Source of the DNA: Candidatus Woesearchaeota archaeon
GTDB lineage: Archaea; Nanobdellota; Nanobdellia; Woesearchaeales; DSVV01
Length of the DNA stretch: 64,000 bases
Assembly: GCA_016214075.1 (NCBI GenBank)
Contig: JACRPI010000005.1
Span: 2,662 to 66,661, forward strand
Direction of reading: 5' to 3'
The notes under the pieces are model-generated. The model searched no databases and had not been told where the DNA came from. It saw nothing but the letters and a program-made list of their open reading frames with translations. Below, one piece after another: positions 1-44,725 of the stretch; position 1 is the first letter of the stretch; each line of letters starts with the position of its first letter. The position numbers and the translations under genes are program-made.

Positions 1-727
1 CATATCCTTTTTTAGGATTAAATTTTGTTTTAAACTTCGGTTCATACAATGTCTGGCTTTTTCGAACTTCTGTCACGAGTTTTCCAGTTCGATCATCAAC
101 CATGTACAAAACCTGTCTGCCTGGTTCTTCTTCATAGGACAAAAATTGTTTAACACCAGGAGCGATTTCCCTGTTCCACGCGGCGGAAGAAATATCACGT
201 TGCGCTTCACCAGTGTGCACAACAACAGCGCCTGCGTTGACATCGCCCGCAAAAACAATCGCTTTTTTGACTTCTTCCATGCTTCGATGTCGAAATTCAT
301 CATTAAAACCACGTTCCTGATAATTGTAGCCGGAAAGGTTTCCAACAGTGTTTGGTGGTGTATGGACGCTTGTATAACTCACGGAGTTTGCGCGGGCAAG
401 TTCGCGGAGTGCTTGTCTCGCTTCATGACCGTATCCTTCTGCGCCTCCTGGTTCGCCTCCTCCTTGAATAGTCGCGAGTTCAATGCTTCCTGCGCCAATG
501 CGAATTGCTTGGGAAGCGGTTTGAACAAGGCTACCGAATCTGCTTCCTTCTGTAACAGAAGTACCAAGGTCATTGACACCTATGGTAGAAGTTTGTGTTC
601 CTTCAATGTTTGGACCGTGTCCTCCTCCTTGACCAGAAGCTTCACCAATGTACGAGTCCGCGACACTTGAATCAGTAAGAGAATGATAATCCCGTGTGGG
701 TCCAAAATAGCCGCTTCCGAAGAACAT
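1..727 (-). CDS. Partial CDS (5' part in window, runs off left edge): xylose-isomerase-like TIM-barrel sugar-phosphate isomerase/epimerase-like protein (tentative)
   Basis: Hand translation of minus strand from ATG at 725-727 (in-frame stop just upstream) stays open to position 1: MFFGSGYFGPTRDYHSL...SVHTPPNTVGN...AGAVVVHTGE, resembling the lsvHap / lGakvvvvHpG motifs of the AP-endonuclease-2 / xylose isomerase-like fold. The listed plus ORF 146..670 reads as antisense noise. Confidence 0.4.
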   Translation of the reverse strand, partial: MFFGSGYFGPTRDYHSLTDSSVADSYIGEASGQGGGHGPNIEGTQTSTIGVNDLGTSVTEGSRFGSLVQTASQAIRIGAGSIELATIQGGGEPGGAEGYGHEARQALRELARANSVSYTSVHTPPNTVGNLSGYNYQERGFNDEFRHRSMEEVKKAIVFAGDVNAGAVVVHTGEAQRDISSAAWNREIAPGVKQFLSYEEEPGRQVLYMVDDRTGKLVTEVRKSQTLYEPKFKTKFNPKKGY

Positions 728-8211: not shown

Positions 8212-9966
8212 ATGGCGGAAAATGTATTCATTGAGCTCAGTATAATCATTTTGATAGCAATAGGATTCGCAGCATTAATGCGACTCCTCCGTCAGCCATT
8301 GATTATTGGCTATATTCTGACTGGTATTGTCGTCAGTCCATATTTCTTGGGTTTATTTAGGAGTTCAGAAGATATTACCACATTTGGGCAAGTAGGCGTT
8401 GCGCTTCTTTTGTTTATGGTGGGTTTGAGTCTAAATCCACAAGTCATACGAGAGGTAGGGAAAGTTTCTATTATTACTGGGGTCGGTCAGTTGTTATTTA
8501 CCGCGATTGCGGGGTTTTTTATCGCAAAATTGTTAGGATTTTCCGTCATTACGGCAGTATACATTGCGGTTGCGTTAACTAATTGCAGCACGATTATTAT
8601 TCTCAAATTAATCTCAGATAAAGGAGAGTTAGATAGATTATACGCGAGGATTACTATTGGCTTTCTGCTTGTTCAGGATTTGATCGCGATTCTGATTCTC
8701 ATGTTTATTTCTTCGTCAGCAGGTGGAGGAACATTTGCGCATATTCTCACAGAAACAGTGGTGAAAGGAGTAGGCGTACTTGCGCTATTATTTGTCGTTG
8801 GCATGTATGTGTTGCCTGCGTTAATAGACCGTGTTGCGAAATCGCAGGAGTTCTTGTTATTGTTTTCCATAGGGTGGTGTCTGCTTCTTGCGGCGTTTTT
8901 GTGGTACCTTAATTTTTCACTTGAAATTGGCGCTTTGCTTGCGGGAGTGACACTTTCGCTTTCTCCATATCGTCATGAAATTAGCGCGAGAATGAAACCC
9001 CTCCGAGATTTTTTTATCATCTTATTTTTCATAATCATTGGGTCACAGATGAATTTTCAGAATGTAACGTACTCATTCTGGAGCATTATTCTTTTCTCTT
9101 TGTTTATCTTGATAGGAAATCCATTGATTCTGATGATAATTATGGGCGCGCTTGGCTACACAAAAAAGACAAGTTTCCTCGTTGGGCTTTCTGTTGCGCA
9201 GGTAAGCGAGTTTACATTTATCATGATTGCGCTTGGTATTAAAGTGGGTCACGTCCCGCAGGAAATAATGTCTCTGGTGACAGTGGTGGGTATGATTACC
9301 ATTGCAGGTTCCACATACATGATCATGTACGCAGATAGATGGTATTGCATCTTCGAGCCATATTTGGGAATATTTGAGAGAAAGGGAAAGAAAATAGATG
9401 GCATAAAAAAGCAAAAGACAAAAGCGTACGATATTATTCTTTTTGGGTACAACAAAATGGGATACGACCTTCTGGATTCATTTAAGAAACTCCGCAAAAA
9501 GTTTTTGATCGTTGACTACGATCCTGATATCGTTCGGCGCTTGACGAATGAAGGATACGATTGTCAGTATGGCGACGCAGAGGATATTGAATTATTAGAA
9601 GATCTTAATGTGGGAAAAACAAAAATGTTAGTTTCAACTATACCAGATCTCCGTGTGAATGAGATTATTATTGCAAAAGCGCGAGAGCAGAATAAAAGTG
9701 CAGTGGTGATTGTTCTTTCTAATCATATTGAAGACGCAATCAGTCTCTATAAATCAGGCGCGACATATGTCGTGATGCCGCACATGGTAAGTGGCGGGCA
9801 TGCCTCTTCGCTTATCAAAAAACATGGAATTGATGTAAAGAAATTTTTCAAAGAGCGTGGAGAGCATCTTAAAGTGCTTCGCGAGCGGCAAAAGAGACAT
9901 AATGTGAGGAAAATTAGCGAGTTATACCATAAATATTTCAAAGGAAAGTTTGGAAAGAAAAAATAA
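8212..9966 (+). CDS. Kef-type K+(cation)/H+ antiporter (CPA2) with C-terminal TrkA-N/RCK domain
   Basis: Polytopic N-terminus typical of the Na+/H+ exchanger family. C-terminal Rossmann segment YDIILFGYNKMGYDLLDSF...VDYDPD. Confidence 0.85.
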   Translation: MAENVFIELSIIILIAIGFAALMRLLRQPLIIGYILTGIVVSPYFLGLFRSSEDITTFGQVGVALLLFMVGLSLNPQVIREVGKVSIITGVGQLLFTAIAGFFIAKLLGFSVITAVYIAVALTNCSTIIILKLISDKGELDRLYARITIGFLLVQDLIAILILMFISSSAGGGTFAHILTETVVKGVGVLALLFVVGMYVLPALIDRVAKSQEFLLLFSIGWCLLLAAFLWYLNFSLEIGALLAGVTLSLSPYRHEISARMKPLRDFFIILFFIIIGSQMNFQNVTYSFWSIILFSLFILIGNPLILMIIMGALGYTKKTSFLVGLSVAQVSEFTFIMIALGIKVGHVPQEIMSLVTVVGMITIAGSTYMIMYADRWYCIFEPYLGIFERKGKKIDGIKKQKTKAYDIILFGYNKMGYDLLDSFKKLRKKFLIVDYDPDIVRRLTNEGYDCQYGDAEDIELLEDLNVGKTKMLVSTIPDLRVNEIIIAKAREQNKSAVVIVLSNHIEDAISLYKSGATYVVMPHMVSGGHASSLIKKHGIDVKKFFKERGEHLKVLRERQKRHNVRKISELYHKYFKGKFGKKK

Positions 9967-9995
9967 TGAGATGCAATTTTTATTGACCAGAGGCA

Positions 9996-10865
9996 TTATT
10001 TGTGTAAGCCTTCTTTGCTTTTCACTTCTTTTCCAGTACCATAAAAAGTGTCTTCAACAACAAGACCAATTTTCTTGAGCATATCGCTTGCGACAAGTCC
10101 AGCATGACCTATTTCCCCTTTGACTACGTCACCGCAAAGACCGTTAATGTATGCGGCGGCGATTGCGCTGTGGAATGGATCTTTTGTTTGTGCGTAAAAG
10201 CCAACAGCTAATCCCGCGAGAATATCACCGGTGCCGCCAACAGTCATTGCAGGGTTGCCTGTTTTGTTGTACGCGACTTTGCCATGGCCGTAAATCATAT
10301 CTACATTCCCTTTGAGAATAATGATGTTGGATCCAATATATTTATTCAACTGAAGTTTTCGAATATGCGTATTCTCAAGAAGCATTTGAAATTCGCGTTT
10401 ATGAGGCGTTAAGATGGAGTTTTTTGTCTCTTTCAAACTGATTGCTTTGATAGCGTCAGCGTCAATAACAAGGGGTTTATTTTTCTTGCTGAGTTCTTTG
10501 ATGACATCAATGCAGAATTGGTGTGATTTTCGTCCAATACCATTGCCAATAAGAACTGCGTCAAAATCTTTTGCGAATTTCACGACAGCGTTGACGTGTT
10601 TTTTGTCAAAATACAAGCAATCAAACTTTTTGGTGATGAGATCAGGCGCAAGTGCGTTTAGCGCCCATGCGACTTTTGTCGGAGCTGCGACAGTGACAAT
10701 ATCAACCCCGCTGCGCAGTGCGGCGATACCTGCGAACGCGACAGCGCCAACGTAATCCTGGCTTCCGCCAATGAGAAGAACTTTGCCAAAATCTCCTTTT
10801 TTTGACGTGGGAAGTCGTTGAGGAAGTTTCAATTTTCGAACATCTTGTCGTGTAATATATTTCAT
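9996..10865 (-). CDS. nnrD: ADP-dependent NAD(P)H-hydrate dehydratase (YjeF C-terminal / carbohydrate-kinase domain)
   Basis: GGTGDILAG motif, VLLIGGSQDYVGA, about 289 aa stand-alone NnrD domain. Confidence 0.85.
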   Translation of the reverse strand: MKYITRQDVRKLKLPQRLPTSKKGDFGKVLLIGGSQDYVGAVAFAGIAALRSGVDIVTVAAPTKVAWALNALAPDLITKKFDCLYFDKKHVNAVVKFAKDFDAVLIGNGIGRKSHQFCIDVIKELSKKNKPLVIDADAIKAISLKETKNSILTPHKREFQMLLENTHIRKLQLNKYIGSNIIILKGNVDMIYGHGKVAYNKTGNPAMTVGGTGDILAGLAVGFYAQTKDPFHSAIAAAYINGLCGDVVKGEIGHAGLVASDMLKKIGLVVEDTFYGTGKEVKSKEGLHK

Positions 10866-10928
10866 ATAAGTCTATTTTGGAATATTGAAATATTTAAGCT
10901 TTTGGATTTGTTCAACTTATTAGAAAAT

Positions 10929-11717
10929 CTACTTCTTGATCTTAACATTCCCTGCAGGCAGCATCCGTATAATTTCATCAATCGTTCCTACTTTAAACTG
11001 CGAACGAAGCGTTTTTGCGAGATCGCTTGGTTTTTGTTCTCCTTGTACAATTTCGACAAAATGTTCTGCGTGCGCTTTGATCGCGGCGTAAGGTCCTGCG
11101 ATAATCCTTCCTTGTTGAACACCAAACGCAAATCGCATGTCATGATCAATATAATGCATTTTTCCTGTGATGACAAACGCGCCGCGTTCAACATATTCTC
11201 CTGCTTTTGCGGTTTTGGTGACTTGTTCTGGAGTGACCCAGCCAACTTTGACGTTGACAAAGCCAAGTTTCCATGCCCTGCTGTATAGCGCAGTCGCAGT
11301 CGCGGTTTCGTTTATCGTGCGTTCAGAAGGTTCTTTTCCTTCAGATTTAATGACAAAGAAGGGGCTTCCTTGTAAATCCGTGTGAAATATGAGATCTTTT
11401 GGAGCAGTGTGTTTCTTGATAACAAGTTCGTTGGTGATTGCGTCTCTGCCGCCGATCACTAGAAAACCATCAGAAGAGTAAAACCAGTGAAATTTTTCAT
11501 ACCATTCTTTTTTTGGGACGTTTTGGACAGCTGTTTTGTGCGCTTCTACTTTTTGTTCTACTTTATGTTGTTCGTGGAGCGCTGTTTGGAGTTTTTGTTT
11601 GCTGATCTCGAGTGCTTTTTTTGCGCCTTCGAGTTTTTTCTTTGCTTTTTTCGCTTTGTCAAAGTAGATGCCAGCGTTTTCGTGAATAGTTTTCGTGAAG
11701 TTGAGGGAAATTTGCAT
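10929..11717 (-). CDS. NFACT-R (DUF814) RNA-binding protein with N-terminal coiled coil (short Rqc2/NEMF/FbpA-family homolog)
   Basis: DLIFHTDLQGSPFFVIK matches the DUF814 core (lwfHa.d.pGShvvl). Lys/Glu-rich coiled-coil N-terminus. Confidence 0.65.
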   Translation of the reverse strand: MQISLNFTKTIHENAGIYFDKAKKAKKKLEGAKKALEISKQKLQTALHEQHKVEQKVEAHKTAVQNVPKKEWYEKFHWFYSSDGFLVIGGRDAITNELVIKKHTAPKDLIFHTDLQGSPFFVIKSEGKEPSERTINETATATALYSRAWKLGFVNVKVGWVTPEQVTKTAKAGEYVERGAFVITGKMHYIDHDMRFAFGVQQGRIIAGPYAAIKAHAEHFVEIVQGEQKPSDLAKTLRSQFKVGTIDEIIRMLPAGNVKIKK

Positions 11718-11737
11718 GAGTAATTTCCATCTTCTTT

Positions 11738-11747
11738 CCTTTATATA
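11738..11747 (+). promoter_or_regulatory. TATA-box-like element (ctttatataatt) about 25 nt upstream of the GC-rich structured island
   Basis: Archaeal TATA consensus-like tttatata; spacing predicts a transcription start near 11768. Confidence 0.4.
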
Positions 11748-11764
11748 ATTAGTGAAAAAGTCTC

Positions 11765-11874
11765 ATCCCGCCGTAGGCGCCGACGCGACGGGGGAAGGCC
11801 CCTCGGGGTGTCGCGTAGGACAAAATTCGAAGAATTTTGTCCGTAGGCCGCCTGCTGCGGCGGGATGGCAAAGT
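11765..11874 (+). ncRNA. Candidate structured ncRNA (~110 nt, GC-rich island) with a 10-bp closing stem and at least two internal hairpins
   Basis: catcccgccg...cggcgggatg perfect terminal pairing. Internal gcgac-[gggg aagg cccc tc gggg]-gtcgc and a perfect ggacaaaattc-gaa-gaattttgtcc hairpin. Local GC far above the ~38% background, followed by a T-rich tract. Confidence 0.4.
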
Positions 11875-38645: not shown

Positions 38646-39293
38646 CTAGAAAGTAGCGGTCTTATCTCCATGCGCGATGAGATGTTTCATATTCCACCAA
38701 AGATATCGTGCCATGCTTGTTTCTTCTTTTGTCGCTTCACTGGAGAGAAGCCGCTGTATATTTTCCTTAAACATATTTTTTGTTCTTCTCTCTGCTTCTT
38801 CTACTGTATTGCCTTTTATAAGAGAAAGCATCGCTTCGTGAGATGGTTCTAAAAAGAGTTCTGCGGTTTTGTCTGTAAGTGGTTCGGTTATTCTTTTGGG
38901 TTCATAGAAAAAAATAAAATCCTCTTCATAACCAAGATATGCTTTTGCTCCTTGTTTAATGCTTTCAGAGCCTAATACTTTTGCGGAACGGCAAGAAATT
39001 GCGTAGGTTATCTTTTCTCTTAAGAGTGCGTCATTTTGTTTTGCAATAACGAGCGGTTCATCTTTATGACCTCCAACAGCATCTTCTCTGCCATGCCCAT
39101 TAAAAATAACCAGTCCAGGTTCTTGTTTTTTCAAGATTCCTTCTGTTTTATCTCTGTTTGCTTTCTCTCGTGAAAGATCAAAGACAGTAATTCCTTTTTC
39201 TTGTGCTAGAGCAATTGCTTTTTTACTCCAATGGGATAAATAATGTGTAGTGTCATCATGCTCCGGACGGGTGATAAGCATTTTCTTATTCAT
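38646..39293 (-). CDS. Hypothetical protein (215 aa)
   Basis: ORF in an apparent 5-gene minus-strand operon (39689 down to 36035). No family recognised. Confidence 0.5.
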   Translation of the reverse strand: MNKKMLITRPEHDDTTHYLSHWSKKAIALAQEKGITVFDLSREKANRDKTEGILKKQEPGLVIFNGHGREDAVGGHKDEPLVIAKQNDALLREKITYAISCRSAKVLGSESIKQGAKAYLGYEEDFIFFYEPKRITEPLTDKTAELFLEPSHEAMLSLIKGNTVEEAERRTKNMFKENIQRLLSSEATKEETSMARYLWWNMKHLIAHGDKTATF

Positions 39294-39496
39294 GTTGTGA
39301 CGATCCCTTCTTTTAATGCTTGTAAGAATTCGAGCTCAATCTGGATCATCTTTCTTCCAATTGCGTCTTCTCTTTTAACGCTCTCAATGAGTTGTTCTTT
39401 TGTAAATTCACCTATAGAGCCAATAGAAATCTTTTTGTCAGAAGGCAAGACTTCTAGCCGTGCAATAATCAGTTTTTTTATATCTTCATCTATCAT
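39290..39496 (-). CDS. Small hypothetical protein (68 aa)
   Basis: Overlaps the downstream gene by 4 bp (operonic). Confidence 0.4.
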   Translation of the reverse strand: MIDEDIKKLIIARLEVLPSDKKISIGSIGEFTKEQLIESVKREDAIGRKMIQIELEFLQALKEGIVTT

Positions 39497-39497
39497 C

Positions 39498-39689
39498 TTA
39501 GATAATCCTCAGTTTTTCAAGTTTCTTTAATATCATGTCTCCAATCTTTGTTTTATTTTGTATTTCTAAATACGCGACATCCCAGCTAATCGGACCTGTT
39601 TTATCTAACACCGCAATAATCTCCTTTCTTATATTCAAGGGAAGGTTTGCGTAAACTTTTAAGAATCTTTCTCTGAGCATATGCTTCAT
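39498..39689 (-). CDS. Small hypothetical protein (63 aa)
   Basis: First gene of the minus-strand run; 1-bp spacing to the next ORF. Confidence 0.4.
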   Translation of the reverse strand: MKHMLRERFLKVYANLPLNIRKEIIAVLDKTGPISWDVAYLEIQNKTKIGDMILKKLEKLRII

Positions 39690-39791
39690 ACTGTTTTTTT
39701 AGTTAATATAGTTTTGGGTTCCTGTCAGTTTATCCTTTTAAAGTGGTAAAAATGCATAACCTTTAAAAAACAGGGTGCGTTTCTCTGGTGT

Positions 39792-40739
39792 ATGACAGTG
39801 GGAATTTCGTTGACGAATGGAAAAGAAGCGATTGTTATTGCTGATAGCAGAGTTTCCGCAGCAGGAAGACAAAGCGATTCCGCAAATAAGCTTGATACAT
39901 TTAGCTGTAATAATTATGCCGGAGTTTTGTTTGGTGCAGGTTATGGGAATCTTGTTCTCGGTGTTCTTAAGTCTCTCTCGAGTTTCAAAGGTGGTTCTCT
40001 GGATCAATTTATTGAGGTAGTAGTCAGGGATCATCAACAGAGAGTAAGAAATGCGGATTGTTCTTATCTTGAGTATGTTAAAGGAGAAATTCAAAAAAAA
40101 GCAGAAGTGATCGCAGATGAGGAGCAAAAACGACGATTCATCTATGAGGAGCAGCATAAGGCAATGGAAAACTATGCTCGTAATAAACAAGTGGCAGATA
40201 CTATTTTTACGGTTGTTGCGTATGATCAGCAAGCAGATAAAGTAAGGCTTTTTTCAATTAATGAAGCGTCTGCAATGCAAAATTTTCAAGATCATAGTGA
40301 AATAGGTTCCGGAGCAGATGGCGCGCATATGTACCTTTCTACAAAATTACAAGGTGTTGATACTACACAACTTCCTCTTCAAGATTTGATTTTTTTTGCT
40401 CTTAATGCATATAACCAAGCAACAGTCAATCAAGGTGTTGGTGGAACACCTAAAATTGCAGTAGTTTCAAAACAAGGTATAAAAGTGCTTGAATATGAAA
40501 GAACAGTTGCGTTGGCGAACCTTAGTGGTGCATGCCTTTCTGGTTTTCCTGAAGGTGTGACTAGCGATACTGTCCGAAAATCATTGGCAGCAATTGCAAC
40601 AGGGGAAAATCCTCAATATCCCGAAATCGCCGCAATTGTAGGAATTGAACCAACAGTATTAAGTGGACTTTATGTTCCTTACTCCTCATGGCAAGAACGA
40701 GCAAACAGACAACTCTTTCCGCATAAAGCAGAACAATAA
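39792..40739 (+). CDS. Divergent proteasome-beta-like Ntn hydrolase (peptidase T1 fold; Anbu/HslV-like) with C-terminal extension
   Basis: Met-Thr start MTVGISLTNGKEAIVIADSRVS (Thr1, Asp17-like, Lys33-like NKLD) and GSGADGAHMY (the GSG motif of proteasome beta/HslV). 315 aa. Confidence 0.55.
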   Translation: MTVGISLTNGKEAIVIADSRVSAAGRQSDSANKLDTFSCNNYAGVLFGAGYGNLVLGVLKSLSSFKGGSLDQFIEVVVRDHQQRVRNADCSYLEYVKGEIQKKAEVIADEEQKRRFIYEEQHKAMENYARNKQVADTIFTVVAYDQQADKVRLFSINEASAMQNFQDHSEIGSGADGAHMYLSTKLQGVDTTQLPLQDLIFFALNAYNQATVNQGVGGTPKIAVVSKQGIKVLEYERTVALANLSGACLSGFPEGVTSDTVRKSLAAIATGENPQYPEIAAIVGIEPTVLSGLYVPYSSWQERANRQLFPHKAEQ

Positions 40740-40771
40740 ACTATAAAAACAACCCTTGAACCCAAACAACC

Positions 40772-41833
40772 ATGGCAATTCCAACAATCTTACAACTGAC
40801 TTTTTTCAACAACACATTACTTCAATACATTATTTTCTTTAGTATTATCACAGGTGCAATTCTCATTGGAAAAATTGCGTACTATCTGATAAAAAATTTC
40901 GTTAAAGTATTAACAAAGAAAACACAGACAGTTGCGGATGACATGTTGATTGAAGTCTGCGAACATCCAGTAGTCTTCCTCATTTTTATAATTGGATTTT
41001 ATATCGCGTATAAATCACTCACGCTGACAGAAGCAATAGAGCATACATTCTTTAACATTGTGCTCGTGATGTTCATCTTTAATCTCACGTGGTTCTTCAC
41101 CAGATTAATCGATGGTGTAATCAAATATTATCTTATTCCATTCAGTCAGAAAACACAAACTGATTTAGATGATGCGTTAATTCCTATCTTGCGAAGAATG
41201 AGTAAAATAATTCTCATCTTCATTGCGGCAATAATTGTGCTCGACAAGTTCGGCTACAATGTCGCGTCACTGGTCGCAGGTCTTGGTATTGGTGGTCTTG
41301 CGGTCGCGCTCGCGGCGCAGGAAACACTAAGCAACGTCTTTGGTGGCGTTACTATTCTCACTGACAAACCTTTTGCGCTTGGCGATAGAATTAAAGTCTC
41401 TGGAAACGATGGGTTTGTCAAGGAAATTGGCATGCGTTCTACAAAAATCACCACGTTAGATGGTTCAGAGTTAGTGGTGCCAAACGCGACAATCGCGAAA
41501 GAGATTATTGAGAACGTGACAAGAGAAAAATCAAGAAGAGTCAAGTTGACCGTGGGATTAGTGTATGAGACAGATCTCAAAAAGTTAAAAAAAGCAATGG
41601 AGATTGTTAAGAAGATAGTCGTGGATCAGGAAGGCGTTGAGGATAAATGTGATGTTTTTTTTGATGAGTTTGCTGATTTCTCCTTAAACTTTGTCATCGT
41701 CTATTGGGTAACAGACATTCCGAGAATCTTTGAAATAAAGAGCGCGATCAACCTGAAGATCAAAGAAACCTTTGAGAAAGAAGGCTTGGAATTCGCGTAT
41801 CCGACACGAGTTATTTACAACAAGAAAGGATAA
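40772..41833 (+). CDS. Small-conductance mechanosensitive channel (MscS family)
   Basis: Three N-terminal TM helices, pore-lining LVAGLGIGGLAVALAAQETLSN, then the beta-domain. Confidence 0.85.
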   Translation: MAIPTILQLTFFNNTLLQYIIFFSIITGAILIGKIAYYLIKNFVKVLTKKTQTVADDMLIEVCEHPVVFLIFIIGFYIAYKSLTLTEAIEHTFFNIVLVMFIFNLTWFFTRLIDGVIKYYLIPFSQKTQTDLDDALIPILRRMSKIILIFIAAIIVLDKFGYNVASLVAGLGIGGLAVALAAQETLSNVFGGVTILTDKPFALGDRIKVSGNDGFVKEIGMRSTKITTLDGSELVVPNATIAKEIIENVTREKSRRVKLTVGLVYETDLKKLKKAMEIVKKIVVDQEGVEDKCDVFFDEFADFSLNFVIVYWVTDIPRIFEIKSAINLKIKETFEKEGLEFAYPTRVIYNKKG

Positions 41834-42518: not shown

Positions 42519-44123
42519 CTACGTCGTTGGACATGTCGCTTGACTTACAGTAACGCCGCTCATTTCATCCATATGATAAAATTCTATTGATGCATAATCA
42601 AACCACGGTTTCATCGTTGAGATAGCACTGCTTAAAGAACCAGAAGAAGACGGATAATACAATGGATCAGTCACACCATCTGCGTTACATTGTGTTGATT
42701 CTTGAAACATGTAGTCAACAAAGCTATAGCCCGTATCATCTTCAGCAACATCACCAGAAATATGGCTTGATTGATATACTGCTTGTATCCCACAACAACT
42801 ACTTCCATCAGCATCTTCTCCTTTAAATCGTTCTAGGAAACTTGGTGCATCTTCATTGAAGACAAAGGTATGCTCAACGATGTGCTGATACATATCGTCT
42901 TCACTAAAATCATCACTGACATTTTGTACAACAATTGGAAAATATCTTCCATCATCAGAGAGCAAATCAGTGCGTAAAATACTGTACGGATCATACAACC
43001 CCACAATCGGAATCGTCGTAAATCCTTCTCCAGTAATTCCAGAGAATGAAACAGTAGTCTTTGTTGTAGAAATCGCAAACGTGGTATTCACATCAATCTC
43101 CCATGGTCCAGTTTCATCAATAACAATGGAAGTCACATTAATATCCACGTCAATCGCGAGCTGTTCTTCTGCAAGCGCTTCGAAGGAATTCAGTAATCCT
43201 AAGAAAAATCCTTCTCCAACAATGGGAGAATCAAGGTAAAAATCAATGGGAATGTTCTCTGTCCCGGTTGTTTCTGTAATATCCCATTCCCATGATTCAG
43301 TACCACAGTCAAAATCACCTGATGCGCAACTAAAATCAGAGGCACCACTCGTAATACTATAATCACTGTCACTCTCTGTAAACGGCGCAGCGATCACCAC
43401 GTCATAATAGGTCTCTTGAGTAAGAGGCAGTTCCCCGCCAAAGGTAAAAGTGTATGAACCATCGCTTCCAAAATATTGAATATCCAATGCAACAAGTGAA
43501 CCAGTTTCGTTGTACACCACAGCATACAAAACGTTGGATGTTGCGGAAGAAGTATTCTCGAGAGTAACAGTCATGGAATGAAGTGATTCCAATTCTTCAT
43601 ACGAAGAAGGAAGCGACACCCGTTGTACAACAGCAAGAGTATCGCCAAAGGATTCTGATGATGGGCTAGAAGAAGTCTCTGCGATTGTAATAAACTCCGT
43701 ATCATTCCACGCAGTCAGTGTCATCGCGAAATCATCAGAAAGAGAAGTAACGTCATACGTTCCAGAAACAGTGCCGTTCATCATAACCTCACGGTAAAAT
43801 GCTTCAGGATCATCAATTGCGGTTTCAGTCGCATTCACATAAGAAACCATTGCCCGCAAACTGTTTGCGCCAGCGACTTTCACAATAGTAGTCAAAACAT
43901 CATCGCTCAATGATTTCGTAAACATATTCACGACAACTGCTTCAGTGCGTTCAGCTGCTGCGTTTTGTTTGTCCATCATGACGTGGCTCGATGCTGCGTA
44001 CAGAACAAACGCGAAAATAGAGATGAGAAAAATGCTGACAAACGTAAACATGAATCCTTTTTTCCAAAATCTATCTTTCAAAATTATTGCCATATCCGAA
44101 TCTCCCCGACGTATGGTCCCCAC
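42519..44123 (-). CDS. Large extracellular pilin-like/adhesin-like protein with class-III (type IV pilin-like) signal peptide
   Basis: KKG|FMFTFVSIFLISIFAFVLYAA N-terminal anchor, then a ~480-aa Thr/Ser/Asp-rich ectodomain. Overlaps the upstream pilin-like gene. The true start may be the internal Met at 44093. Confidence 0.55.
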   Translation of the reverse strand: MGTIRRGDSDMAIILKDRFWKKGFMFTFVSIFLISIFAFVLYAASSHVMMDKQNAAAERTEAVVVNMFTKSLSDDVLTTIVKVAGANSLRAMVSYVNATETAIDDPEAFYREVMMNGTVSGTYDVTSLSDDFAMTLTAWNDTEFITIAETSSSPSSESFGDTLAVVQRVSLPSSYEELESLHSMTVTLENTSSATSNVLYAVVYNETGSLVALDIQYFGSDGSYTFTFGGELPLTQETYYDVVIAAPFTESDSDYSITSGASDFSCASGDFDCGTESWEWDITETTGTENIPIDFYLDSPIVGEGFFLGLLNSFEALAEEQLAIDVDINVTSIVIDETGPWEIDVNTTFAISTTKTTVSFSGITGEGFTTIPIVGLYDPYSILRTDLLSDDGRYFPIVVQNVSDDFSEDDMYQHIVEHTFVFNEDAPSFLERFKGEDADGSSCCGIQAVYQSSHISGDVAEDDTGYSFVDYMFQESTQCNADGVTDPLYYPSSSGSLSSAISTMKPWFDYASIEFYHMDEMSGVTVSQATCPTT

Positions 44124-44725
44124 ATTTGTGTATTATTGACAGTGCCAAAGAGAATGGTTTTGTACGGAAATAAGACAGTCGCGTTCTCCTGGTTAAATGT
44201 TGCGTTGTTTGTGTAAAAAGATGTTCCTTCAATGCGAACATCGATGTTCACATCATCAAGGTTTCTGTAAGAAACATAATCCGCGATGCAGGTGCTAAGC
44301 ATTTCTGTGCAGTATGTACAGTCTTCTGTTGTGGAGCGAAAATAATATTCTCCTAATTGTTGAAAGAGTGTATTGGAAGTGTCAGTAATGTATCCTTCTT
44401 CAATTGCGGTGCTGTTGATGCTGCAGTTTCCTTGACTAATATCTTGAATCTCCACCATGAACAGATCCGCGGTGTCATAAAGTTCTGTTTGCACAATCCC
44501 CACAGGTGGTTTAGACAGGACAACAAAGAGATACAGAATGATTCCAAAGCCAATGCTGATCACCATGAGGGAAAAGATTGCTTCGAGAGTGAAATAGATT
44601 CCTTTTTTGTGAGAACGCATAAATTTCATGTTCTGAGGAAGACGCATTGCATTTTCCAGCAAACTGATGTATTTATGCTTTCTTGTTCTGTGATGGTAAA
44701 TAAGATTCTTTTCTTGTCGGTTCAA
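44084..44725 (-). CDS. Type IV pilin-like protein (class III signal peptide)
   Basis: MKFMRSHKKG|IYFTLEAIFSLMVISIGFGIIL resembles a prepilin leader plus FTLIE-like N-terminus. Probable start at an internal Met near 44626. Confidence 0.55.
   Translation of the reverse strand: MNRQEKNLIYHHRTRKHKYISLLENAMRLPQNMKFMRSHKKGIYFTLEAIFSLMVISIGFGIILYLFVVLSKPPVGIVQTELYDTADLFMVEIQDISQGNCSINSTAIEEGYITDTSNTLFQQLGEYYFRSTTEDCTYCTEMLSTCIADYVSYRNLDDVNIDVRIEGTSFYTNNATFNQENATVLFPYKTILFGTVNNTQMWGPYVGEIRIWQ

Follow-up and report, generated by a model that had tools for sequence, protein, structure and literature searches.

The window, i.e. the whole 64,000-nucleotide stretch of DNA that was analysed, carries on its forward strand an ORF coding for a protein of 315 amino acids (Table 1). 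Its translation is the protein quoted in the initial annotation, with the amino terminus MTVGISLTNGKEAIVIADSRVS. An identical protein is found in NCBI as HZC31_01065, a hypothetical protein encoded by a 143.5-kb contig of a Candidatus Woesearchaeota metagenome-assembled genome (MAG). This exact match and the many homologs presented below identify the ORF, at the sequence level, as a real gene rather than a chance ORF. The opposite strand of the same interval has stop codons throughout, and an antisense ORF (39738..40232, 164 amino acids) finds no support. Upstream, the gene is flanked by three small divergently transcribed ORFs (38646-39689, minus strand) without family match. Downstream, it is followed by the gene of an MscS channel (40772..41833), the neighbour that had been noticed initially, which has its own box TATAAAAA at positions 40742-40749. 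An all-against-all comparison of the ORFs from 17 independent loci revealed no recurrent neighbour besides the gene itself. No AAA+ ATPase, alpha subunit or Anbu-type partner is coded near the gene or its homologs at these 17 loci. A conserved operon shared with MscS, with an AAA+ ATPase or with partners of the Anbu type was thus discarded, and the MscS neighbour is considered incidental because the gene stands alone. Stand-alone genes are also reported for other new proteasome homologs (Fuchs et al., PMC8665760).

Table 1. Features of the proteasome-family gene and of its upstream region. Positions are those of the window; residue numbers include Met1.
Feature	Position	Strand	Basis or detail
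Candidate transcription-factor operator, one copy of the TAGTRGTAA-consensus motif (AGTGGTAA)	39742..39749	+	motif recurrence
TATA-like box (TTTAAAAA), ~30 nt upstream of the ATG	39762..39769	+	sequence
Whole gene, 315-aa predicted proteasome-family Ntn hydrolase	39792..40739	+	stop codon 40737-40739
Thr2 codon, predicted amino-terminal nucleophile once Met1 is gone (equivalent to proteasome Thr1)	39795..39797	+	Thr in 156/165 members, Ser in 4/165
Beta-sandwich core, first half, residues 1-60, S1-S4 (predicted); Asp18 39843-39845, Lys33 39888-39890, Gly50 39939-39941	39792..39971	+	AF2, hhalign, conservation
Surface loop 61-69 and hairpin of two long antiparallel helices (70-104 and 110-134), replacing H1/H2 (predicted)	39972..40196	+	AF2, pLDDT >95
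Core, second half, residues 136-234, S5-S8, H3, H4, S9-S10 (predicted); G172-S173-G174-x-D176 40305-40319, G215-V-G-G218 40434-40445	40197..40493	+	weak beta matches, hhalign, conservation
Carboxyl-terminal five-helix module, residues 235-315 (predicted); N243-L-S-G-A 40518-40532, P296-Y-S-S-W-Q-E-R-A-N305 40677-40706	40494..40736	+	conserved motifs

The first start codon after the in-frame stop is the ATG at position 39792. The distance that separates it from the BRE/TATA-type element is typical of leaderless or short-leader archaeal transcripts, which supports that Met-Thr is the real protein start and implies that the gene is transcribed in such a form. Most of the 17 family promoters have a BRE/TATA-type box (aaagaTTTATAAA, of the (aaaga)TTTATAAA type) at -29 to -34, the exceptions being two promoters in which it lies farther upstream and one in which it is degenerate. 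The TAGTRGTAA motif is positioned 10-13 nt upstream of the TATA box in family genes. In many cases it makes up one arm of an imperfect inverted repeat (TTAYCACT-N(2-7)-AGTRGTAA) that, at one locus, is a perfect 12-nt palindrome. Ten of the 17 family promoters have the motif at -48 to -54, compared with ~5 of 214 other genes from these genomes at that offset, an enrichment that is overstated because the pattern was defined post hoc, after viewing the sequences. The motif nevertheless suggests the existence of a dedicated regulator of the family genes.

Homology searches delineate a real, conserved and sizeable protein family. There are 105 homologs with E <= 1e-3 in a collection clustered at 90% identity, nearly all of full length (300-350 amino acids) and none with a Pfam domain. 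A profile search of 1.84 billion representatives (50% identity) retrieved 334 clusters with E <= 1e-3, of which 199 have E <= 1e-10 and 139 have E <= 1e-30. The named homologs all originate from MAGs of Woesearchaeota, Nanoarchaeota or Nanoarchaeia with the exception of one labelled "Nitrospiraceae" (P0098). The gene content of this last locus is uninformative, and a bacterial origin was set aside in favour of a probable misbinning. A scan of GTDB species genomes yielded at least 16 loci, a lower bound given that the scan used restrictive peptide patterns derived from a narrower alignment. They are titled Woesearchaeota, Nanoarchaeia, "uncultured archaeon" or, in nine cases, "uncultured Methanosarcinales archaeon". 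The latter label was discarded for the one MAG tested, whose adjoining TFB gene is 87-94% identical to TFBs labelled Woesearchaeota, Nanoarchaeota or DPANN, with no Methanosarcinales protein among its best 120 matches. The label is probably also wrong in the eight other MAGs, which come from the same TPA project. A remoter subgroup (MTLNV..., DGSGGD, GVGG) is found in an archaeal contig together with genes coding for Gins51, aEF-1alpha and a RIO kinase. As far as sequence collections and their labels allow one to define its hosts, the family is specific to Woesearchaeota/Nanoarchaeota (DPANN archaea). A viral or mobile origin was rejected, no relatives being found in IMG/VR viral contigs or in PHROGs.

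The similarity of the family to proteasome subunits is faint when searched in domain libraries. The window protein has no match in Pfam, where PF00227 is absent at E <= 10. In NCBIfam, its residues 136-222 align to the bacterial 20S beta model TIGR03690 with E 0.012 and 15.4 bits, for a cut-off of 191.9. Phmmer against the PDB aligns residues 143-238 to the proteasome beta subunit of M. jannaschii (3h4p, E 0.06). This weak single-sequence signal is lost when a full-length HMM built from 46 members is compared to the PDB, in which case no proteasome chain is retrieved. Nothing significant was found in Pfam, NCBIfam, PHROGs or the PDB (phmmer and hmmsearch), either with the single protein or with the 46-sequence profile. 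When the 46 members are scanned one by one, five match PF00227 (best E 9e-4), four match 20S_bact_beta and one matches archaeal PsmB (E 7e-5), while none passes the curated cut-off of the proteasome models and none matches the HslV or connectase models. The initial assessment that the sequence is far from canonical archaeal PsmB is accurate, all similarities lying below curated cut-offs. The hhalign comparison of a PsmB profile, which included Thermoplasmata sequences, with the family core is co-linear over ~180 columns with E ~0.004 and a probability <15%. The T. acidophilum beta reference used is identical to PDB 1PMA_B/3C91_H and the A. fulgidus sequence was obtained from the same output. 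Proteasome kinship is suggestive but insufficient at this level. The sequence similarity being statistically marginal, homology rests mainly on the predicted structure and on motif conservation.

The AF2 model features a beta-sandwich core made of two halves that are separated by a long helical hairpin and followed by a carboxyl-terminal module (Table 1). The strands of the first half span residues 3-8, 13-17, 20-23, 26-29, 34-38 and 42-49. They precede a short helix (52-60), the loop 61-69, strands in the region 138-172, two helices (175-185 and 196-210) and strands in the region 221-232. A Foldseek search of the full PDB with this model, which had been recommended as a check against the T1 families, ranks beta subunits of bacteria and eukaryotes and Anbu at the top (E ~1e-8, probability 1.00, target-normalised TM 0.62-0.74). 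The two findings named beforehand as contrary to a proteasome-like assignment, namely placement in an unrelated Ntn family and loss of the catalytic residues, did not occur; T2, D18, K33 and G50 are all kept. It is quite unlikely that the protein is an Ntn amidohydrolase with a non-protein substrate such as a small-molecule or lipid amide, in the manner of acid ceramidase, penicillin acylase or choloylglycine hydrolase. Such proteins lie ~10 Z units below those of the proteasome family in the structure comparison, rely on Cys or Ser nucleophiles that autoproteolysis releases and do not have the invariant Asp17, Lys33 and Gly47.

Conservation of the active site was assessed in 165 full-length members, which are only 25-50% identical overall. 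The motifs D18-S19-R20, K33 within NKLD and G172-S173-G174-A-D-G, pointed out in the initial annotation, are present in the window protein. In the hhalign alignment to T. acidophilum beta, D18 pairs with Glu17, K33 with Lys33, G50 with Gly47 and G172-S173-G174 with Gly128-Ser129-Gly130. The proteasome-like family is defined, in proteasome numbering, by Thr1/Ser1, Asp17 (or Glu17), Lys33 and Gly47 (Fuchs et al., PMC8665760), a set that nearly all members studied here keep. Like Thr2 (Table 1), residues D18, K33 and G50 are close to invariant (163, 162 and 163 of the 165 members, respectively). The same is found for G172 (165), G174 (160), V216 (163), G217 (162) and G218 (161), followed by S173 (148), D176 (145, and Glu in 11 others) and N213 (144). 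The strong purifying selection on Thr2, D18, K33 and G50 argues for an active enzyme. The supporting residues Ser129, Asp166 and Ser169 of canonical beta subunits have a different fate, since only S173, the Ser129 equivalent, is kept. The variable position Q214 aligns with Asp166 and G217 with Ser169. The active-site hydrogen-bond network would consequently differ from that of 20S beta, and the family-specific residues Asp176, two positions after GSG, and Asn213 probably replace Asp166 and Ser169 in their role. That the Asp166 and Ser169 equivalents are absent, and that motifs are degenerate in a few remote relatives (P0187 and P0194 are devoid of GSG), would fit a scaffold or assembly factor that has lost catalysis, comparable to proteasome alpha subunits. 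Considering the conservation of the nucleophile and of its partners, such a pseudo-enzyme is very unlikely. The gene very likely codes for a catalytically competent proteasome-like Ntn hydrolase with an amino-terminal Thr, as judged from the modelled fold and the conserved residues.

A Thr nucleophile must head the mature protein, and methionine aminopeptidase strips a Met that precedes Thr. In 151 of the 165 full-length members this Met is the single residue ahead of Thr2, showing that there is no propeptide. Methionine aminopeptidase would thus expose Thr2 by removing Met1, a maturation that needs neither propeptide nor autoprocessing and has parallels in Anbu, BPH and connectase. With its own free amine and the Asp18/Lys33 pair as activators, the Thr hydroxyl would then attack a peptide or amide bond. 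In this scheme Gly50 would provide the oxyanion hole, Ser173 of the GSG loop would support the amino terminus, and Asp176 and Asn213 would probably stand in for Asp166/Ser169. The H1-H2 hairpin and the carboxyl-terminal module most likely determine how the enzyme assembles, how its active site is reached or which substrates it takes. It would most likely work without a dedicated ATPase, beside a canonical 20S proteasome presumed to be present in the same cells. The analysis documents the modelled fold, the conserved catalytic residues, the domain layout, the distribution and the absence of conserved partners, from which we infer removal of Met1, activity, peptide substrates, the roles of the added elements and the coexistence with PsmA/B.

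With 315 amino acids versus 203, the window protein exceeds T. acidophilum beta by 112 residues. The initial annotation gave its length correctly and assigned the excess to a carboxyl-terminal extension of ~100 residues, which does not hold as the excess is split between the hairpin and the carboxyl-terminal module. The possible coiled region that it placed in the carboxyl terminus is not found there either, the charged, coiled-looking part being the internal hairpin (~38% charged residues). In the model, helices H1 and H2 have roughly double the canonical length, adding ~45 residues inside the fold, and the gap from H2 to S5 has only 3 residues. The hairpin tip and the preceding loop accommodate insertions of 30-40 residues in some members so that the segment equivalent to residues 50-140 varies from 83 to 131 amino acids. 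The carboxyl-terminal module is predicted to have helices at residues 235-249, 258-270, 276-283, 287-292 and 297-308. Of these, the first is probably the counterpart of H5, which reduces the truly additional part to ~65 residues. The NLSGA and PYSSWQERAN motifs of the module are very strongly conserved among the 165 members, and no match of the module to a known fold was found. Residues 237-309 show a weak match to the HTH of the phage TP901-1 CI protein (E 0.075-0.14), an xxIAxxLGLxxxTL segment fits the classical HTH pattern, and an operator-like repeat is found upstream of the TATA box. These features would suit a self-cleaving or protease-coupled regulator that binds its own upstream repeat through an HTH in the carboxyl-terminal module. 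This is the least probable of the explanations considered, as neither a significant match to XRE/CI-type HTH domains, in sequence or structure, nor a basic DNA-binding surface was found.

The added elements are also relevant to the type of activity to expect. The protein shares with connectase (MJ0548, DUF2121) its presence in a narrow archaeal clade, the Met-Thr start without propeptide, an extra carboxyl-terminal domain and the absence of an ATPase partner, and it is probably not a bulk protease either. It could thus be a monomeric or low-order, sequence-specific transpeptidase, ligase or processing protease, a version that would refine the proteasome-like hydrolase explanation without being exclusive of it. 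The conserved NLSGA and PYSSWQERAN surface motifs suggest specific binding, and the remodelled H1/H2 face leans to a specialised role. Long insertions in the H1/H2 region could prevent ring assembly (Fuchs et al., PMC8665760). In contrast, the structure resembles that of ring-forming members more closely, which speaks against such a role. Connectase-like behaviour is considered rather unlikely. Note that the features that characterize connectase itself are not found: the window protein has the H1/H2 pair, is devoid of the two-helix insertion between S3 and S4, and does not match DUF2121.

It was also considered that the gene codes for the main PsmB of the cell, a fast-evolving DPANN version that would associate with PsmA in a 20S particle. 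Beta subunits are indeed the best structural matches, one member reaches E 7e-5 with the archaeal PsmB model of NCBIfam, and no canonical psmA or psmB was found within the 64-kb window (tblastn with T. acidophilum beta). The sole weak tblastn match in the window is an NFACT RNA-binding protein and was rejected as a proteasome subunit. Several observations stand against this possibility, which is very unlikely. No member exceeds a curated proteasome cut-off, there is no propeptide, and the H1/H2 face, through which beta subunits of 20S particles touch the alpha ring, is a long hairpin. The GTDB scan, with its restrictive patterns, gave at least 16 loci. Furthermore, according to a 2026 preprint that covers 208 complete Nanobdellota genomes, the universal single-copy core of this phylum includes a proteasome subunit. 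This subunit is recognised by annotation, while the window family is matched by no annotation model. The family would therefore be an additional paralog and not the only proteasome-type enzyme of the cell. Two comparative genomics studies of DPANN (PMC8204110 and PMC6349945) do not mention proteasomes.

The enzyme proposed here, a proteasome-like Ntn hydrolase distinct from PsmB, differs from the well-studied groups of its superfamily. The 20S PsmB (T1A, PF00227) has a propeptide, Asp166/Ser169 and a short H1/H2 pair. In the window family the propeptide is absent, the two residues are replaced, the pair is a ~65-residue hairpin and there is an extra carboxyl-terminal module. Bacterial HslV is coded next to the hslU AAA+ gene; the window family has no such neighbour at the 17 loci, carries ~110 extra residues, and matches no HslV model or chain. 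Valas and Bourne are said to have described in 2008 an Anbu operon that codes for transglutaminase-like, ATP-grasp and alpha-E proteins. Anbu is bacterial and has its own operon, unlike the window family, which is found in DPANN hosts and lacks these partners at its loci; the Anbu chains of the PDB gave no sequence match at E <= 10. BPH subunits are recognised by sequence membership and by a compact structure without insertions or carboxyl-terminal S12/H5, none of which applies to the window protein. The initial suggestion of an Anbu/BPH-like homolog is thus retained for membership in the proteasome family and abandoned for Anbu, in the absence of match and operon, and for BPH.

A closer likeness is found to archaeal families described more recently. 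Fuchs, Alva and Lupas (2021) reported 22 further proteasome-like families, of which the archaeal ones are WPH, PHI (with a helical insertion) and ACC (with a coiled coil) (PMC8665760). As in the window family, these are uncharacterised archaeal homologs with Thr1/Asp17/Lys33/Gly47, no propeptide and no conserved context. The likeness extends in part to the added elements, a helical insertion close to H1/H2 being described for PHI and a helical extension of the carboxyl terminus for ACC, WPH and some PHI. Compared by their descriptions, the PHI insertion follows H2 (pore loop), whereas the extra length of the window family is inside the H1-H2 hairpin. In a comparison of the same kind, the carboxyl-terminal helix of ACC, WPH and some PHI is predicted to form a coiled coil, whereas the window family has a globular five-helix module. 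The only archaeal family with an added carboxyl-terminal domain in that paper is connectase (PMC8665760). PHI and WPH have the tightest sequence links to proteasome subunits, to which the window family is, again going by descriptions, linked marginally. The representatives of PHI, ACC and WPH are RefSeq proteins from cultured organisms (WP_012956871.1, WP_161937350.1 and WP_040339656.1). The named hits of the window family come from Woesearchaeota/Nanoarchaeota MAGs, with no RefSeq protein or protein of a cultured organism among them. DPANN and Woesearchaeota are not mentioned in PMC8665760, and the literature search retrieved no paper that joins DPANN or Woesearchaeota with proteasome homologs. 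Going by these descriptions, it is fairly probable that the family lies outside the published proteasome-like set. A broader proposal, put forward tentatively and with limited confidence, is that it constitutes a subfamily beyond the 27 named (proteasome, HslV, Anbu, BPH, connectase and the 22 further families), confined to Woesearchaeales-type DPANN. Its doubled hairpin and its unique carboxyl-terminal module would confer on it an unprecedented assembly, or a connectase-like specific processing or ligation activity that serves episymbiosis, and it would be controlled by a dedicated regulator acting on the inverted repeat. If true, one could envisage, for example, a ring whose gate is made of its own hairpins and not of alpha subunits.

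The activities of proteasome-like Ntn hydrolases extend from bulk proteolysis (20S, HslV) to the highly specific protein ligation of connectase, an enzyme that has become a tool in biotechnology. The authors of the 2021 survey anticipated the discovery of further families (PMC8665760). The present one is an incremental extension of a known, recently expanded enzyme family and not a new principle. With no fewer than 334 clusters at 50% identity it is a large family, unannotated and confined to little-understood archaea. Its members appear to keep the catalytic machinery and to have a remodelled alpha-ring/regulator face and carboxyl terminus. Their characterisation could disclose ATPase-free gating or targeting of a Thr protease, or a new specific peptidase or ligase, and would bring a data point on proteostasis in genome-reduced symbionts. 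A profile based on the family alignment would allow annotation of "hypothetical proteins" in thousands of DPANN MAGs.

The genes of this family of predicted proteasome-like N-terminal-Thr hydrolases share a conserved operator-like element, consensus TAGTRGTAA, located 5' of the BRE/TATA box. The consensus is often one half of an imperfect inverted repeat, TTAYCACT-N(2-7)-AGTRGTAA, which becomes a perfect palindrome at locus L003 (GTGATTAATCAC). By a pattern drawn up after inspection of the data, 10 of the 17 family promoters compared have TAGTRGTAA at -48 to -54, versus ~2% of other genes from the same genomes.

Features of the family genes, their relatives and the surrounding sequence (P, individual family proteins or remote relatives; L, loci carrying their genes)
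Feature	Location	Strand	Remarks
Operator-like element, window copy	39730-39770		upstream of family gene
Operator-like element, other loci	L001, L003-L005, L007-L009, L013-L017		-65 to -40 from the ATG of the family gene
ORF, 215 aa	38646-39293	minus	
ORF, 68 aa	39290-39496	minus	4-nt overlap with 215-aa ORF
ORF, 63 aa	39498-39689	minus	
Pair of adjoining large ORFs (534 and 213 aa)	42519-44725	minus	
C-terminal part of NFACT/ribosome-quality-control protein, 262 aa	10929-11717	minus	NFACT-R_1 domain, E 3e-31
P0058 insertion	residues ~62-105		family alignment A1, columns 108-150
'Uncultured Methanosarcinales' MAGs	L004, L006, L008, L011, L012, L014, L015, L018, L019		GenBank CAZSRD01, CAYVNN01, CAYJSO01 and others
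Sister subgroup	P0176, P0177, P0181, P0183, P0185, P0191; locus L020, 8001-8939		

Length variation of the proteins is found around the long hairpin. In P0058 the loop preceding it is expanded by ~40 residues of Asn/Ser-rich low-complexity sequence, while in P0025, P0035 and P0053 the hairpin tip is lengthened by 30 residues. The presence of these additions identifies the pre-hairpin loop and the tip as solvent-exposed sites. A distant sister subgroup, which the family profile matches with E values of ~1e-29 to 1e-37, features the amino terminus MTLNV and the motif DGSGGD. Its members align only to profile positions 7-290 and have a different carboxyl-terminal tail. The subgroup gene of L020 lies near bacterial-type GroES/GroEL genes (9915-11812), the rest of that contig being archaeal. 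A few remote relatives, such as P0187 and P0194 (IGMTDSAE, VGSNQEQ), have lost the GSG loop despite retaining Met-Thr, Asp and Lys. Such proteins may represent side branches of the family that are inactive or have shifted in function.

The DPANN-specific family gene is carried by nine TPA_asm MAGs whose records bear the title 'uncultured Methanosarcinales archaeon'. The TFB from one of them (L001, the same record as L006) has 87-94% identity to TFBs of Woesearchaeota/Nanoarchaeota, and its top 120 matches include no Methanosarcinales protein. Based on this sequence comparison the label appears to be wrong for that record; it is probably wrong also for the other eight MAGs, the TFB comparison covering one. 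One family member, the 359-aa P0098, has 'Nitrospiraceae bacterium' as its organism name in NCBI. Its 13.6-kb contig (L021) has genes that include RNase J, TldD/PmbA and a transglutaminase-core gene. The occurrence of P0098 under this name may reflect horizontal transfer to a bacterium, but L021 is probably a misbinned DPANN contig.

In the window, three closely packed ORFs (38646-39689, minus strand) are divergently oriented relative to the family gene. None of them has a match in Pfam or PHROGs, and they are not found beside the family gene in other genomes. The sole tblastn match of the T. acidophilum proteasome beta probe in the window, a weak one, is to the NFACT protein and is a false positive. 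The 534-aa and 213-aa ORFs are without Pfam match. The 534-aa protein, which has a hydrophobic segment at its amino terminus and regions rich in Ser/Thr/Asp, may be a surface protein.
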